DNA of 64,000 bases from NCBI GenBank assembly GCA_965116925.1, contig OZ220744.1, positions 5,856,001 through 5,920,000 on the forward strand. The letters are read 5' to 3'. Numbering within the stretch: the stretch's first letter is position 1; every line of letters begins with the position of its first letter. The notes under the pieces are model-generated. The model made no database searches and was not told the DNA's origin. It saw only the letters and a program-made list of their open reading frames with translations. This stretch comes from Candidatus Poribacteria bacterium. GTDB taxonomy: Bacteria; Poribacteria; WGA-4E; PCPOR2b. The translations under genes were made by a program, and so were the position numbers. Shown one piece after another: positions 38,432-53,138 of this stretch.

Positions 38432-38504
<73 letters not shown>

Positions 38505-47606: not shown

Positions 47607-47981
47607 GGGCGTGTTGACATTTTGAAGCTGCTGATTCGGCAAACACTGTAATCATCAGGCAATCTGCCAAATGTAGCGCAAACTGTTAGTTTGCAGGCTG
47701 AGATCACAATCTAACAGATCGTGGTACAAAAGGAGATTGTAGGTCGAGATTCATATCTCGACAAAATACCCAGCGTGTCGCACCACAATCTTGGCTCAAT
47801 CACCTTGGAACATTGCACGCTGTTCTTAGGTATTGTCGATTTTGGAAAATCGACCTACAGCAGCAGTCCGAAATCGTTTCTGATGTGTAAGTAGAGGGTT
47901 GGGAAACCCACCCCCTACGAAGAATCATACGTCTGTGCGCTCTCCTTGATTGTCTAATTGCGATGACATGTCAACAGAACC
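47607..47981. mobile_element. MITE-C, non-coding, filled with REP-like doublets
   Basis: GGGCGTGTTGACAT / ATGTCAACAGAACC ends (11/14 match); TA on both flanks. Confidence 0.65.
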
Positions 47982-48019
47982 TAGATTTATACTTTTCTCT
48001 GATTCAGAAAGGAAATTCT

Positions 48020-49186
48020 ATGAAGATTAAAGAAATTCGCGTTGTAGAAATTGAGTTGAATCCGAACCCGACAACACCGCCACGGACACCGAGTCGAGCC
48101 AGTAAATATCCAATGAATCGACCCATTTCCCGTTACCCAACGTTCGACAAGAAAGTGGGGGATGCCTCCTTAGAATGGAAAAGACCCGCATGTATTGTGA
48201 CAGCGGAAGATGGTACTTGGGGGTTCGGTATTTCACTTCATGGCGGTCCAGTGACTCGAATCATCACGGATTACTTTGCTCCACGTCTCGTTGGCGAAAA
48301 CTGTATGGCGACAGAGAAACTGTGGGATATGATGGTGCGATCATCAACCGCCTTTGGTGCAACCGGTTTGATCAGCTATGCGATCAGCGCGGTCGATTGC
48401 GCCCTGTGGGATCTCAAAGGCAAGATTTTGAAGAGACCTGTTTACGAATTGTTAGGGGGACCGCAGAAGGAGAAAATTTTCTGCTACGCCTCCGGTTTTG
48501 ATCAGGAATGGTATATGGAACTTGGATTCAAAGCGACAAAATTATTCACACCTTACGGTCCGGTGCACGGGAAGGAAGGCTTAATCAAACTCGAAGAATT
48601 GGTGGCGAGCACGCGAGAAGTGATTGGCGATAAAGTTGAATTGATGTTGGATGCGTGGACCGGCTTTGACGTTGAACATACCGTGCGTGTCTGCGAGCTC
48701 ATGAAACCCTACGACTTGAAGTGGATGGAAGACTACATTTCCCCCGAAGATTTTGTAGGCTACGAAACCTTGCGTCAACGCATTCCTTGGCAAACACTCG
48801 CTACGGGAGAACATTGGTATCTGCCAACCGTTTTTGCCGCTGCTGCGGGTCGGCGGTTGGTCGACATCTTCCAGCCAGACGTATTGTGGTGTGGTGGTAT
48901 TACTGCTGCAGCCAAAATCTGTCACATCGCTGAGGCAAACGGTATCTCTGTGATTGCACACGGTGGAATGAATTATCCCTACGGTCAACATCTGTCGTTT
49001 GCCATGCCCGCTATCACATGGGGTGAACGGTCGGAGGGTATCTCTGCGCCCGGTGTGCCGCTTGAAGAGATGGTTAAGTTGCCCGGTACTCCAGTCATCA
49101 AAGATGGCTACCTCGTACCATCGGATGCCCCCGGTTTCGGTCTTGAAATTGATGAGGCTTGGATTGAGAGTGTAAGTACAGTGTGA
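48020..49186 (+). CDS. L-rhamnonate dehydratase-like enolase-superfamily enzyme (intron host)
   Basis: AISAVDCALWDLKGK, LMLDAW, WMED, ATGEH, QPD; unspliced stop TGA at 49184-49186, spliced stop TAG at 51537-51539. Confidence 0.88.
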   Translation: MKIKEIRVVEIELNPNPTTPPRTPSRASKYPMNRPISRYPTFDKKVGDASLEWKRPACIVTAEDGTWGFGISLHGGPVTRIITDYFAPRLVGENCMATEKLWDMMVRSSTAFGATGLISYAISAVDCALWDLKGKILKRPVYELLGGPQKEKIFCYASGFDQEWYMELGFKATKLFTPYGPVHGKEGLIKLEELVASTREVIGDKVELMLDAWTGFDVEHTVRVCELMKPYDLKWMEDYISPEDFVGYETLRQRIPWQTLATGEHWYLPTVFAAAAGRRLVDIFQPDVLWCGGITAAAKICHIAEANGISVIAHGGMNYPYGQHLSFAMPAITWGERSEGISAPGVPLEEMVKLPGTPVIKDGYLVPSDAPGFGLEIDEAWIESVSTV

Positions 49187-49312
49187 TTTTGCGTAGGGTT
49201 ATACATCGTCGGTAAGATAGGCGAATCTGAATCGTTAGATCGTAATTTCCCCCAAGATATTGTATACTGTAATGTTCCACGCTACAAAATACGATAGAAA
49301 GGGGAAATTACG

Positions 49313-49438
49313 ATGAGCACCATAAGCGTAAATGTTCCAGAGAAACTTTGGCGTGAGTATGAAGCGTATATATGTTTCAGTCGGTCAAGGGGTCAGTATT
49401 ATCCAACCTTTTGGTATTGGCTGAACTACATACGCTAA
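49313..49438 (+). CDS. 41-aa ORF within intron domain I, RHH-like N-terminus
   Basis: AAAGGGG RBS; MSTISVNVPEKLWREYEAY...; followed by a hairpin at 49451-49484. Confidence 0.45.
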   Translation: MSTISVNVPEKLWREYEAYICFSRSRGQYYPTFWYWLNYIR

Positions 49439-49946
49439 ACACTCAACCAGTATACACTTGGCAGAAATATATTGTCAAGTGTATGCCCAATTAAACCCGA
49501 CTCGGCGAACTTGCCGCCGTATACCTCACCCTAGCTGCGTCGCTGGAAACGGCGGGGTGGCAAACAAGGGAAAATGGCGCACGGACTGGAATGAATACAG
49601 ATACTCTAAATTGCCACGTCAGGTAAGCATGGTATGGTTAAAACGAAAGTTGAACTGCCGTAAGCTTCGTCAACTCTAACGGGTAAATCTGCGAGTGAAT
49701 GCCCTGAGAGGTGCATTCAGTAATCAGCCCGTAACCAAAATGGTAAGAGGTTAGAACGCTCACTTTATTCTTGAGCGTCATGATAAGGGTTTTTGTACTT
49801 AGCCTTTATTAGCAAGTCACAATTCCTTTGGGGTAAAGACAGAACCTAACCTATGCGTATATATATAGCGTGAGAGCGAAATAGTCCCTAAGTTGTCTCA
49901 TGCATCCAGCGCACACTGTCGAACCAGTATGCGCTGGTGTACGAAC

Positions 49947-50447
49947 CTATTCATAATAGAGGTTAGCCCGCAATTCTTTAATTGCAGGTTCAACAACGTG
50001 CTCGATGCGGTAGGGATTGTGTTTCCAAAGGGAACGCAATTCCCTTTCAACGTAATCAATCACATCAAGGGTCAAGGAACACGCTAATTCCTCAGCCCTT
50101 GCATAACCGTCCTTGAGAAGACAAGTATTCATTATCATCTCAAGGGTTGGGTGCGTATCATTACGCCCCACCTTTTTCGCAGAGTGGACTGTCACGACGT
50201 TCACCTCATAGAGGTTAGCTCGCAATTCTTTAATTGCAGGCTCAACAATCTCCTTGAGACGATCATCGTTGTGTTTCCACAAAGAGCACAACTTGCTCTC
50301 AAGGTCATCAACCCAGTGAGGGGTCATCGAATAGGCTAATTCTTCATCCCGTCGATAATCGTCCTTGAGAAGATAAGCATTCATTATCATCTCAAATGTT
50401 GGGTCACGCCCTACCTTTTTCGCAGAGTGCACTGTCACGACGTTCAT
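49947..50447 (-). CDS. Hypothetical protein of two ~80-aa repeats, antisense within intron domain II
   Basis: Duplicated unit NVVTVHSAKKVGR...EPAIKELRANLY with frame preserved; GGGAGG upstream of ATG. Confidence 0.65.
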   Translation of the reverse strand: MNVVTVHSAKKVGRDPTFEMIMNAYLLKDDYRRDEELAYSMTPHWVDDLESKLCSLWKHNDDRLKEIVEPAIKELRANLYEVNVVTVHSAKKVGRNDTHPTLEMIMNTCLLKDGYARAEELACSLTLDVIDYVERELRSLWKHNPYRIEHVVEPAIKELRANLYYE

Positions 50448-50633
50448 CTCCTCCCTTGTTGGATTAGGCGTGGTTGAACACGCCTTTTCCGCATAGGACG
50501 ATGAATCGATGTTTAGGTTTATGAGATGATAAGGGAGAGGAGGCAAGGTAGGATAGCAATACCTGAGCATTGCCAGAGTTAGGAAACTGAAAGCCTAACA
50601 AAAAACTTTACCAACATTGATGAAAAGCGGGGC

Positions 50634-50993
50634 TTGCCCTGTCAAACGACTGGATTCGGCGTGTTTTCATCTCAACGTATCACCGAGTTTGAAAATCACG
50701 TCCGAAGTATTCAGATGAAACTGGACAAAGCGGTTCCAAATGATGATAAAAACCTTGGTTCATATTAAGAAAGCGTGCAACAGCAATCGTAGGGGCGGGG
50801 TTTCCTCGCCCGCGCTTCACATTTTGCACTTTCTTTTTATATGAGCCAAAACCTTATCCGATGGTATGTGCATCTTTTGAGTAAGAAATCGAGAACCGTT
50901 AAAATCCTCGCAATTCACAACTAGCATTCCCGGAAAGAGATGGCAAACCTTATCGACAAAGATATTGACTATCTACGGTTGGTAAAGGTTTGA
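50634..50993 (+). pseudogene. Remnant of the intron-encoded RT/maturase (N-terminal RVT_N-like part), MITE-interrupted and internally deleted
   Basis: Removing the MITE gives FENHVRSIQMKLDKAVPNDDKNLIRWYVHLLSKKSRTVKILAIH*; located at the start of DIV; no YADD. Confidence 0.72.
50757..50847. mobile_element. MITE-B with REP, 8-bp target duplication
   Basis: GGTTCAT...ATGAGCC flanked by AAAACCTT on both sides. Confidence 0.88.
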
Positions 50994-51019
50994 TGAAGTC
51001 CGTCAAGTGAGATTAAGAC

Positions 51020-51382
51020 TCAATACCCGACTGTTTGCCAATAATAGATGATGCCATCAGGACGAACAAAAAACAATCTACGCTTTTCCACAGTGTATGT
51101 ACGCCCATGTTTATAAGTGGCGACAGGTATCAGTGGATGGTAGGATACAGACGAAGGAAATTGACCCACGACGCTGTTGTCCCAAATATAGATTGTCCCA
51201 CCCTTACCATCAGGGACGGACGATTGATAGACTCCCCATGATCTGATAACTTCAGAGATATGAGAACCTAACCAAGAATCCATAATCTCCCGATTGGAAG
51301 GGGGTAGAAGTTCACCTAATTTGGCACACCCAAGCATCAGGAAACAAAGGAACACAACGACAAATCTCATATTTCTCATCAC
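51020..51382 (-). CDS. Small lipoprotein, antisense within intron domain IV
   Basis: MRNMRFVVVFLCFLMLGC lipobox; WLGSHISEVIRSWG. Confidence 0.72.
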   Translation of the reverse strand: MMRNMRFVVVFLCFLMLGCAKLGELLPPSNREIMDSWLGSHISEVIRSWGVYQSSVPDGKGGTIYIWDNSVVGQFPSSVSYHPLIPVATYKHGRTYTVEKRRLFFVRPDGIIYYWQTVGY

Positions 51383-51588
51383 CTATTTTACTATTTTACG
51401 AATTATTTTATCGACGATAGAAAATTAGGAAGGTTTAACACATCATCATTTTTGATTCGGAAAGCCGTGTGCGGTGAAAGTCGCACGCACGGTTTGGAAG
51501 CGGGGAAAAGTCCGTGAGGACTCTACCTATGCTCACTAGAATATACAAGAAGGGTAGACATCGCTCGGCTATGAAGATGACTTTATCG

Positions 51589-52674
51589 CTATTGCTGCTC
51601 GTATTCAAATGGGAACGTCACCGGCTCACCATCGTTCGCCCACGATGTCGCCATCGCCACGTCAATTTCCCGGTCCTTACGACCGTTGTAAGCCCCATAT
51701 TCGGGCTCGGTGTCGTTGCGAACAGCGTTTGCGATACTCATCAGTTCTGACGCGACAGGAATTTCGCCATCACTGAGCGGGTAATTTTGCAACGGATTCT
51801 CCCACACCACTTCCGGCGTTGTATCCGCCACGAGTGCGGCGACGGTCTCAAACCCATTAACATCGTTGGTTTTGCGCGTGATTGTGATTTCGCGTTGCTC
51901 ATCGGTAGTGTCGCTCAGAATGACCGCTTCATCGCGGAAGCACATCCCGCGTTCAGCGTAGAACTTCGTGCCGTTGAAACCGCGAAGCGGCGAACCGTAA
52001 GACAAGCTGCTGAAATTGAATACCCCGACCGCGCCATCGGCAAATTCGATGATGCCGTGCTGCCATTCTTCTGAGTCGCGTGTCGGCTGACCTTGCCGCC
52101 AGATGTGTTCCTGCACGGTAAAACTCTTTCGGAACCCGAACACGCGCAGGGGTTCGTTATCAAATCCGACGTAACTGCGAATCAAGCCGATTCCGTGATA
52201 CCCGTGCCCGCGAAATTCGTTGTAGGCGACGTTGACTTTGCCGAATACCCCCGCCAGAATCATCTCGCGTTTAATCCGTTCCGAGGGCACACGATAATAG
52301 TTTTCGTTGACCTCAATCTTCGTTCCGTGCTGCTTTGCGGATTCGATCATTTTGTCCGACCAACCGAGGTCTGTGTCGATCGGCGTCTCGGTGCAGTAGC
52401 TTACCCCATGTTCAGAGCACAGCAGCCCCGGGATGTGATTGTTGCTCGGCGTAATTACGATGGAGCAGATATCTGGCTTCTCTTTTTCCAGCATCTCAGC
52501 GGTGTCTGTGTATGTGGCAATGTTATACTTTTCCCCCTGCTCTTTGACGGAATCTTCGTGTAGATCGCAAACGGCAACGAGTTCAAGGTCGTCCTTCAAC
52601 TTCGCAATGAGCGGCAGGTACGCGCCCGTTCCACGATTCCCTGTGCCGATATGTGCAATTTTGAGCTTGTCCAT
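51589..52674 (-). CDS. Gfo/Idh/MocA oxidoreductase
   Basis: IAHIGTGNRG, LVAVCD, ETP; GGAGG RBS. Confidence 0.88.
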   Translation of the reverse strand: MDKLKIAHIGTGNRGTGAYLPLIAKLKDDLELVAVCDLHEDSVKEQGEKYNIATYTDTAEMLEKEKPDICSIVITPSNNHIPGLLCSEHGVSYCTETPIDTDLGWSDKMIESAKQHGTKIEVNENYYRVPSERIKREMILAGVFGKVNVAYNEFRGHGYHGIGLIRSYVGFDNEPLRVFGFRKSFTVQEHIWRQGQPTRDSEEWQHGIIEFADGAVGVFNFSSLSYGSPLRGFNGTKFYAERGMCFRDEAVILSDTTDEQREITITRKTNDVNGFETVAALVADTTPEVVWENPLQNYPLSDGEIPVASELMSIANAVRNDTEPEYGAYNGRKDREIDVAMATSWANDGEPVTFPFEYEQQ

Positions 52675-53138
52675 TGATTCGCCTCCTCTGGCAATTGAAG
52701 ATTGCAGGTTGTTTTCACCGGTTTTTCTCCGCTGCGAAAGGCAACTCAACACCCCAATCTAACTTCAAACGCATTATAGCAAAAGGCTTTGCAGAAATCA
52801 AGTGTACCCGCGGATAACTAACAATCAGCCGCACTCACCAAAATTAAAGCCGAGCGAAAACACCAACAAACAAGCGGTTCAAGAAATAATTCCAAACAAT
52901 CCAGAAAGGACATTAACAGCGCGGAGTTGATAGTAGCCGTTCTAAATAAAAAATGCTACAATGCTTAAAGATTTGAAGAATTAATTGCTTGCAGGGGTTA
53001 TTCTTAATTGGAGTCTTTCTGATCTATAGAGGGTGACATCTCTGGGAAATTCGCCAACTTCATCCTGCACCACCAAAAGAAATCAATGTTGAGCTGAATC
53101 GTTCGTTTCTTTACACCATTTCTTAATAGGAAGGAAAA

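Follow-up and report, generated by a model that had tools for sequence, protein, structure and literature searches.

To our knowledge, the bacterial group II introns of the textbooks encode only their own reverse transcriptase (RT)/maturase and, rarely, a homing endonuclease. Here we describe a group II intron of a sponge-symbiotic Candidatus Poribacteria bacterium in which two unrelated protein genes are found in antisense orientation besides the remnants of the RT. The intron occupies positions 49181 to 51536 of a stretch of 64,000 nt (contig OZ220744.1, positions 5,856,001 to 5,920,000; in the following called the window, to which all coordinates refer unless a genome position is stated). 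The genome consists of a single contig of 6.47 Mb with a completeness of 99.1%.

Several described systems share single properties with this intron. Introns of a IIB1 clade, among them Avi.groEL and EcKTE56.groEL, are situated at start or stop codons or adjacent to them, and they are characterised by a 5'-subterminal 'subdomain Ia' of large size (Michel et al. 2007 as cited in PMC12584367). According to the same article, this subdomain comprises 300–700 nt, shows sequence similarity only between close relatives, and its deletion reduces retrohoming about eightfold. The TeI3 introns of Thermosynechococcus elongatus are described as having lost their open reading frame (ORF) by deletion and as being mobilised in trans (PMC2882425). 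C.te.I1 of Clostridium tetani is a compact ORF-less intron that self-splices, in a genome without a gene for an intron-encoded protein (IEP; PMC4424553). Cargo in domain IVb of engineered targetrons is reported to lower the insertion efficiency (PMC8524655), and some group II introns encode LAGLIDADG endonucleases (PMC4424553). In full-text searches of the literature we found only engineered cargo and no natural passenger gene other than RT or LAGLIDADG genes in a group II intron; the accessible part of a 2015 review of variant group II introns likewise lists none (PMC4424553).

We consider the present intron to be the fossil of a payload-tolerant lineage with two genuine passenger genes; this is the best explanation and, taken as a whole, a moderately probable one. 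An earlier note on this DNA had placed ORFs other than the RT in domains I, II, and IV (DI, DII, and DIV). Inserts are present in all three domains and two of the three ORFs are real genes, whereas the third, of 41 amino acids (aa), is probably spurious. The parts of the element which are essential for this view are the following:

49181 to 51536, plus strand: group II intron, 2356 nt, 5' end GTGTG, 3' end ...CTCAC
49885 to 50536, plus strand: domain II, stem 49885-49901/50521-50536 around an insert
49902 to 50520, plus strand: insert of 619 nt in the terminal loop of domain II (loop of 2–6 nt in sister introns)
49947 to 50447, minus strand: 166-aa passenger gene, in-frame tandem duplication of a helical unit of ~83 aa
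50576 to 50585, plus strand: 5' half of the stem that closes domain IV, paired with 51449-51458 (10 bp)
50604 to 50993, plus strand: RT remnants, N-terminal ~70 aa (broken by a miniature inverted-repeat transposable element, MITE) and C-terminal ~26 aa; the stop codon ends at 50993
51020 to 51382, minus strand: 120-aa passenger gene for a small lipoprotein (lipobox LMLGC), between the RT stop codon and domain V
51401 to 51459, plus strand: conserved 3' part of domain IV with the motif AGGTTTAAC and the closing strand, 81–87% identical to the sister introns L025 and L023
51460 to 51536, plus strand: domains V and VI (DV, DVI; Rfam RF00029, 64.4 bits, gathering score 40)

For the comparison with related introns, 30 sister loci were fetched, of which 22 could be delimited at the 5' end and at DV and eight at DV only. 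The DV–DVI piece matches 23 of 29 genomes of the family, with up to 30 matches per genome and three in the genome studied here. Among the delimited sisters are full-length introns (RT of 579–591 aa), introns with a frameshifted or internally deleted RT, and compact ORF-less introns of 717–868 nt. Relative to the 22 sister introns, four changes are specific to the present intron, i.e., the DI insert, the DII insert, the MITE, and the RT deletion.

The intron resides in an MR/MLE gene, and its target recognition sequences are preserved:

47963 to 49186, plus strand: MR/MLE gene (enolase superfamily), host of the intron (Pfam MR_MLE_C 9e-42, MR_MLE_N 4e-14)
49175 to 49180, plus strand: intron-binding site 1 (IBS1, AGTACA), the hexamer at the end of the 5' exon, perfect complement of EBS1
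49794 to 49799, plus strand: exon-binding site 1 (EBS1, TGTACT) in a hairpin loop of domain I, pairing with IBS1 at 6/6 positions

Orthologues of the host gene with 88–93% identity are present in 17 congeners. Since all 17 orthologous loci of the genus carry the empty site ...GTAAGYACA|TAGAATA... and no intron at this point, the intron can be delimited exactly to 49181-51536. Its insertion point is immediately 5' of the TAG stop codon of the MR/MLE gene. In the unspliced mRNA a TGA stop codon is made by intron bases (GTG|TGA) and the protein ends with ...STV*, whereas the predicted spliced mRNA reads ACA|TAG and ends with ...ST*; splicing thus alters one residue only. Complementarity of EBS1 and IBS1 was found as a single candidate in nine sisters with a different sequence each time, i.e., the pairing covaries. 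As EBS1 still matches the 5' exon, the intron would have arrived by reverse splicing. Two further events were observed at this host gene: the congener G015 carries a different mini-intron 18 nt downstream of the insertion site, and in G004 (C1:1532569-1535783) the MR/MLE orthologue is split by an insertion of ~3.2 kb at a place equivalent to about position 48735 of the window.

The element thus has domains V and VI, GUGYG...AY ends when compared to the empty site, the EBS1–IBS1 pairing, and a predicted fold of domains I–III, as is characteristic of a group II intron; an intact RT/maturase ORF in domain IV is missing. In the predicted structure 95 of the 101 DI–DII consensus pairs are kept, and the sisters keep 89–101. 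The Rfam search which the earlier note had suggested was successful for domains V and VI; the match to group-II-D1D4-7 (49501-49634) reached 25.9 bits and remained below the threshold of 34 bits. On the whole, the description as a group II intron with an intact-looking core and a decayed RT holds.

Apart from the two ends of the MITE described below, the junctions are not assembly artefacts. Contigs of two other DNA runs, X2 and X3, are identical to the window across the exon junctions as well as at either end of the DI insert and of the DII insert. The X2 pieces comprise 49151-50786 and 50822-51471, and several X3 pieces cross both exon junctions.

The RT has been reduced to two stubs. With the intact 582-aa RT of a sister intron, tblastn recovered aa 2–73 (E 1.8e-16) and aa 552–577 (E 0.008). 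The RT of the sisters contains the domains RVT_N, RVT_1, GIIM, and HNH, and its nearest solved structure is 6me0 (E 7e-88), which we take to be the intron RT of T. elongatus. A DNA search of E. coli genomes, by which this RT could have been placed beside the E. coli groEL introns, gave no match. Within the N-terminal stub a short repeat is inserted:

50757 to 50847, strand not assigned: dispersed repeat of ~90 nt, similar to a MITE or a repetitive extragenic palindromic (REP) element, flanked by the 8-bp direct repeat AAAACCTT

Of the 56 matches obtained in the genome, all but two fall into this MITE. It is absent from the sister L023, where its flanks abut. The ends of the MITE (50757, 50847) are crossed by none of the listed X2 and X3 pieces. 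The ~90-nt palindromic repeat with the core GTAGGGGCGGGGTTTCCTCGCCCGC occurs at ~50 other places of the genome and is common in congeners as well.

The insert in domain II is enclosed by a hairpin. The stem is formed by TCCCTAAGTTGTCTCAT and ATGAGATGATAAGGGA, its upper part shows compensatory changes, and in seven mini-introns the loop comprises 2–6 nt. The sisters are continuous from intron position ~719 to ~1341, i.e., without the insert. On the minus strand the insert has the form of a compact cassette of a hairpin, a Shine–Dalgarno (SD)-like sequence GGGAGGAG, the 166-aa ORF, and a GC-rich hairpin. A longer reading of 207 aa is less likely, since its start would fall outside the insert. 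Among 1.84 billion representatives seven relatives of the 166-aa protein were found at E <= 0.001. Five of them are single-unit proteins of 61–81 aa, including the best match (82% identity, 7e-29); for the two long repeat proteins Pfam returned nothing but spurious matches to several families.

The two repeats of the 166-aa protein differ at a ratio of nonsynonymous to synonymous substitution rates (dN/dS) of 0.36 with a dS of 0.56. At the codon positions 1, 2, and 3 there are 22, 9, and 23 changes, respectively, the second position being changed least. The 83-aa unit has no Pfam match above the cut-off, and its model, with a predicted local distance difference test score (pLDDT) of 68, has no Foldseek match better than E 4. 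Judged by its repeat structure and its homologues, the 166-aa ORF is a real gene, and the antisense repeat protein that the earlier note had placed in a loop closed by the DII stem is indeed located in the DII hairpin. The gene was not found in 28 genomes of the family, in 175 other Poribacteria genomes, in metagenome_contigs, or in viral_contigs. Because it is not found in the 175 other Poribacteria genomes, the family of this gene would be foreign to the Poribacteria.

The second gene is located in domain IV, between the C-terminal RT remnant and domain V, as the earlier note had proposed. The 10-bp stem suggested as the closure of this domain is the best pairing that we found, from a wide search which also yields chance pairings. 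At the same position the stems of sister introns differ in a compensatory manner (GAGTCAA/TTGACTC, GCGTTAT/ATAACGT). The ~400 nt between the RT stop codon and position 51401 show no relationship to the sister introns; within them lies the antisense 120-aa ORF. Its likely start is the ATG at 51370 (116 aa), with AGGTGA 8 nt upstream. The lipobox was read from the sequence ...FLCFLMLGC, the cysteine of which is invariant in all five aligned proteins.

Homologues of the 120-aa protein are 39–44% identical with 36 invariant columns. The family has 13 matches in 10 of the 29 family genomes, and none of the 11 loci examined has an intron core or RT nearby; the gene within the intron is the only member in its own genome. 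No member was found in metagenome_contigs and one distant relative was found in genome_contigs. Cluster look-ups provided no names. The 120-aa protein belongs to no Pfam family. Its model (pLDDT 73) gave Foldseek matches with a best E of 0.1 and template modelling (TM) scores of 0.5–0.6 to BamE chains and to an immunity protein of a type VI secretion system (T6SS), so that the predicted fold weakly resembles BamE. Conservation of the sequence within its family indicates that the 120-aa ORF is a real gene.

The place between RT and domain V has been filled repeatedly in this intron lineage. From the RT stop codon to DV there are 24–107 nt in four full-length sisters, but 407–983 nt in seven related introns including the present one. 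In six of the seven (five of the six sisters) the longest ORF of this spacer is antisense:

this intron: longest antisense ORF 120 aa, longest sense ORF 68 aa
G004: longest antisense ORF 171 aa, longest sense ORF 110 aa
G022: longest antisense ORF 160 aa, longest sense ORF 93 aa
G006: longest antisense ORF 144 aa, longest sense ORF 52 aa
G016: longest antisense ORF 91 aa, longest sense ORF 72 aa
G012: longest antisense ORF 75 aa, longest sense ORF 59 aa
G020: longest antisense ORF 66 aa, longest sense ORF 69 aa

The RT is intact in the payload-bearing copies of G016, G012, and G020. The spacers resemble each other only in the last 35–59 nt, and the motif AGGTTTAAY is common to the spacer-bearing sisters as the right-hand boundary. 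The 171-aa payload of G004 and the 160-aa payload of G022 are homologous to each other (30% identity, E 1e-12), and their introns have different exons. A profile of these two payloads gave 22 matches in 16 of 62 genomes of the order, 19 of the loci being without intron sequence; a third member of the payload family, in G008, abuts a decayed DV.

A fragmentary and a decayed intron show a similar arrangement. The fragmentary one, L064 of G004, contains an antisense gene for a 143-aa lipoprotein. The family of this lipoprotein is large and chromosomal, and 36 matches to it occur in 19 of 29 genomes. The decayed one is found in the genome studied here (genome positions 1003601-1004348, minus strand) and contains an antisense 113-aa membrane/coiled-coil ORF, the C-terminal 26 residues of which match the payload of G012 with 58% identity. 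Consequently, the sister copies which the earlier note had predicted do exist: congeners contain relatives with an intact RT as well as different payloads in the same DIV slot.

The insertion sites of the lineage also have a common feature. In 11 of 22 sisters AGGAG or AAGGA occurs within 14 nt upstream of the intron, and in several sisters an ATG follows at a distance of up to 8 nt downstream. Because these introns sit between an SD-like motif and an ATG, the data suggest that the lineage targets translation-initiation regions. Loci with this placement are L023, L024, L026, L029, L048, L050, L051, and L055–L058. The decayed copy on the minus strand of the present genome (genome positions 1003601-1003694) ends 1 nt upstream of the ATG of a further MR/MLE gene.

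From these observations, which establish the anatomy of the intron with its boundaries, the loss of the RT, the two genes as real, and the repeated use of the slot, the following history can be proposed; it is the order of events, the expression of the passengers, and any benefit to the host that we infer. An intron of IIB type, from a Poribacteria lineage usually found beside start codons, would have reverse-spliced into the DNA just 5' of the MR/MLE stop codon in this species only. The hairpin at the base of domain I would have been expanded by a structured RNA of 277 nt, at the same place and of the same kind as 'subdomain Ia'. A foreign gene for a tandem-duplicated helical protein may have entered the terminal loop of domain II, and a gene for a BamE-like lipoprotein from a chromosomal family of the Poribacteria the slot between RT stop codon and DV, both in antisense orientation. 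All foreign pieces lie in terminal loops, with the helices of the ribozyme left intact. By internal deletion the RT has since been lost, and the MITE has been inserted; the intron of today is an immobile fossil.

Inserts in loops, a preserved core, and sisters which carry payloads together with an intact RT suggest that selection still acted on the ribozyme when the payloads entered, which would mean a payload-tolerant lineage rather than random decay. Every loaded form examined is single-copy, so that loading probably cripples the spread. Template switching of the RT to an mRNA would produce sense cargo, contrary to the antisense bias observed; this bias may instead reflect selection against terminators or translation on the sense strand within the intron RNA.

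The passengers may be expressed from the minus strand, either from their own weak promoters or by transcription that reads through from the neighbouring gene. The neighbour is:

51589 to 52752, minus strand: GFO/IDH/MocA oxidoreductase gene (Pfam 6e-14), convergent to the host gene, ending 52 nt from the 3' end of the intron

It has the same direction as both passenger genes. An RNA library, X14, contains an identical contig of 217 nt over 50930-51146. A second one, X17, a sponge metatranscriptome, contains a variant of 96–97% identity over 49644-49850, 49887-50040 (crossing the junction of the DII insert), and 50212-50469. Both libraries may contain carried-over DNA. Scans for promoters and terminators gave nothing above chance, the best promoter-like match lying within a 15-bp palindromic hairpin. 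In X17, contigs of related introns corresponding to 50549-50742 and 51422-51518, with the DIII/DIVa region and DV, reach word depths of several thousand, and the depth of neighbouring genes is in single digits; RNA of this intron family may therefore be very abundant in the holobiont. Elsewhere in the window a tRNA gene was found on the minus strand at 38432-38504 (Rfam 63.9 bits).

The strongest of the rival explanations, which we nevertheless hold to be unlikely, is an accretion of junk after the death of the intron. The intron would have decayed first and then received chance insertions of DNA, the ORFs would be useless hitchhikers, and their position in loops would be luck or due to DNA hairpins acting as insertion hot spots. 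The MITE within the RT remnant is an insertion of this kind, as are independent insertion sequence (IS) elements in three introns of G022 and in a mini-intron of the genome studied here. A site at a stop codon, where splicing alters one residue, moreover implies little selection on the intron. The payloads are single-copy: in this genome neither the loaded intron nor its inserts were found a second time, and when the payload spacers of G020, G016, and G022 were searched in five genomes, each matched nothing but itself.

Further observations weigh against payload tolerance. The DI insert is absent from 20 of 21 aligned sisters and the DII insert from every sister compared, so that both could be late and singular events. 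In the X17 variant the 166-aa ORF shows three synonymous and five nonsynonymous changes, one of the latter at a residue invariant in the family, as well as a 1-nt deletion near its start and a net gain of 9 nt near codon 15. Five promoter-like sites were found, with 5.2 expected from shuffled sequences. An exon–exon junction was seen in none of four runs, where contigs cannot show its absence. A conserved antisense coiled-coil ORF of 63–65 aa in the sisters L023, L024, and L025 gave no clear coding signal, its dN/dS being 0.47 with controls at 0.48–1.68. Finally, the record of inserts in loops (two of two) is a small sample.

Four points nevertheless favour payload tolerance over junk accretion. 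Both inserts outside domain IV hit terminal loops of 4–7 nt within a structured core of ~560 nt, of which the 95 pairs mentioned above survive. The lipoprotein gene is intact, has kept the motifs of its family, and is the sole copy in the genome. The repeats of the 166-aa gene have diverged with a dN/dS of 0.36. Finally, payloads are present in the same slot of RT-intact sisters.

In the sisters L023, L024, and L025 an insert of ~400 nt was also noticed in the region of domain III (L023:1426-1872, L024:1386-1828, and the matching region of L025). It begins on the sense strand with a consensus sigma-70 promoter (TTGACA-N17/18-TATAAT or TACACT) upstream of the RT, and the antisense ORF of 63–65 aa mentioned above lies within it as well.

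One IS element found in these introns is ~950 bp long and contains a pair of overlapping transposase ORFs of 155 and 139 aa. The present genome has eight full copies (genome positions 1749589-1750553 and seven others), and it was inserted independently in at least two introns of G022 and in the mini-intron of the present genome (genome positions 363979-364314). The intron L049 of G022 contains a different IS with an IS5-like transposase. We had considered L055 and L062 of G022 as one loaded intron at two sites. This was rejected, as their cores are 75% identical and the IS elements 98% identical with different insertion points; they are two diverged introns with independent IS insertions.

The payload-tolerant fossil could be taken one step further. 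The lineage might consist of natural gene carriers, in which the stretch from the RT stop codon to DV and the hairpin tips of DI and DII serve as exchangeable slots for small antisense genes of secreted, membrane, and lipoproteins, which are moved by retrohoming to new sites and perhaps new hosts. We regard this as possible, but tentatively so. If it were true, the present intron would be a stranded vehicle which delivered the foreign 166-aa gene and a relocated lipoprotein gene.

That the intron is an active gene vector, still spliced and moved in trans by a related maturase or RT so as to spread its cargo, as the earlier note had envisaged, is very improbable. An intact ribozyme core and EBS1, RT-intact relatives in congeners, homologous cargo at different sites in different genera, and compact ORF-less relatives in multiple copies in congeners (up to the 30 DV matches per genome) are consistent with it. 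However, the present genome holds no RT: neither RVT_1 nor GIIM was matched, and tblastn with the RT of a sister found only the stubs of the intron itself, for which reason the intron must be immobile now. There is one copy of it, and the other intron remains of the genome are all decayed (two short pieces of DV, and fragments at genome positions 364306-364634, which an IS has cut, 1003601-1004348, and 3282280-3282373). For none of the payloads searched, that of this intron and those of the three sisters, was a second site found, and the reads examined contained no spliced junction. Neither an IEP-encoding relative in the genome nor dispersed copies, as they would be typical of a trans-mobilised ORF-less intron, are present. 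Mobilisation in trans is not supported for this genome, nor is vector activity; the idea of a safe harbour is supported, in that IS elements and the MITE also land in these introns.

It remains to consider the insert in domain I:

49208 to 49501, plus strand: small basal hairpin of domain I that has the insert in its loop, stem GUCGG (49208-49212)/CCGAC (49497-49501)
49220 to 49496, plus strand: structured insert of 277 nt, similar to 'subdomain Ia', with three long hairpins
49313 to 49438, plus strand: 41-aa ORF with ATG inside the hairpins, probably not a gene

In the predicted structure the hairpin follows the 5' strands of two basal DI helices. Its stem covaries in 22 aligned rows (GUCGG/CCGAC, GGGGG/CCCCU, GAUGG/CCAUC, UUUGG/CCAAA). 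In the sisters, intron nt 39 is followed by a hairpin of 5 bp and a 7-nt loop, i.e., of 17 nt overall. The earlier note had correctly seen an insertion with the ORF; it extends over the 277 nt given above, and the closing stem proposed for it (49197-49216/49510-49526) is not supported. The insert folds with -98.7 kcal/mol compared to -62.9 +/- 4.9 kcal/mol for shuffled sequences (z = -7.4), and its DNA has no match in 28 family genomes. In the sister of G004 an unrelated insert of 243 nt is found at exactly the same point.

That the 41-aa ORF is the protein cargo of domain I can hardly be upheld, as its ATG preceded by GGGGAAATTACG stands against a lack of homologues among the proteins of 22–72 aa searched and of any Pfam family, a segment dominated by long hairpins, and the unrelated insert of G004 at the same point, as is published for subdomain Ia (PMC12584367). 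The ORF is probably spurious, and by its fold and position the insert is more plausibly an expansion by structured RNA, of the 'subdomain Ia' type, than a gene.

The case shows two unrelated and, by their sequences, genuine protein genes in a natural intron with an unbroken fold. The payload slot is recurrent and in some copies the RT is intact, which would mean that such retroelements can pick up host genes and perhaps move them. The places and the orientation in which payloads are tolerated would guide the design of targetrons, and a route for the shuffling of genes for small secreted proteins in symbiont genomes would be added. In addition, the preference for start and stop codons and the Ia-type expansion would be extended beyond the Proteobacteria.

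Compared with the IIB1 clade at start and stop codons, the present lineage is alike in the location of its introns (this one at a stop codon, roughly half of its sisters between an SD-like motif and an ATG) and in the HNH endonuclease domain of the sister RT. The large structured insert at the base of domain I, without sequence similarity between copies, resembles subdomain Ia. Unlike those introns, the present one has a host among the Poribacteria instead of a proteobacterium, and the likeness described is one of habit and structure. The expansion is present in only two of 22 members of the Poribacteria lineage, whereas the other 20 have the 17-nt hairpin, and with 277 nt the insert is just below the published 300–700 nt. 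Protein genes in domain II or behind the RT are not described for this clade in the accessible part of the article (PMC12584367).

With the TeI3 introns it has in common that the RT ORF was deleted internally so that its N- and C-terminal ends remain, that full-length and compact ORF-less copies of one family occur in related genomes, and that an IS is found within an intron (PMC2882425). It differs in being single-copy in a genome without a helper RT, and in its foreign genes, of which TeI3 introns have none. Like C.te.I1 it is a stand-alone group II intron without RT in a genome without intron RT, but it is loaded with foreign DNA and known from sequence alone. In LAGLIDADG introns a non-RT ORF is likewise found inside a group II intron; those ORFs are sense-strand mobility enzymes, whereas here an antisense lipoprotein and a helical protein without mobility signature are encoded. 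Targetrons, finally, also carry foreign genes in domain IV, and their loss of efficiency fits the single-copy state of the loaded natural introns. Targetrons are man-made, whereas the payloads described here are natural, antisense, and situated in domain II as well.

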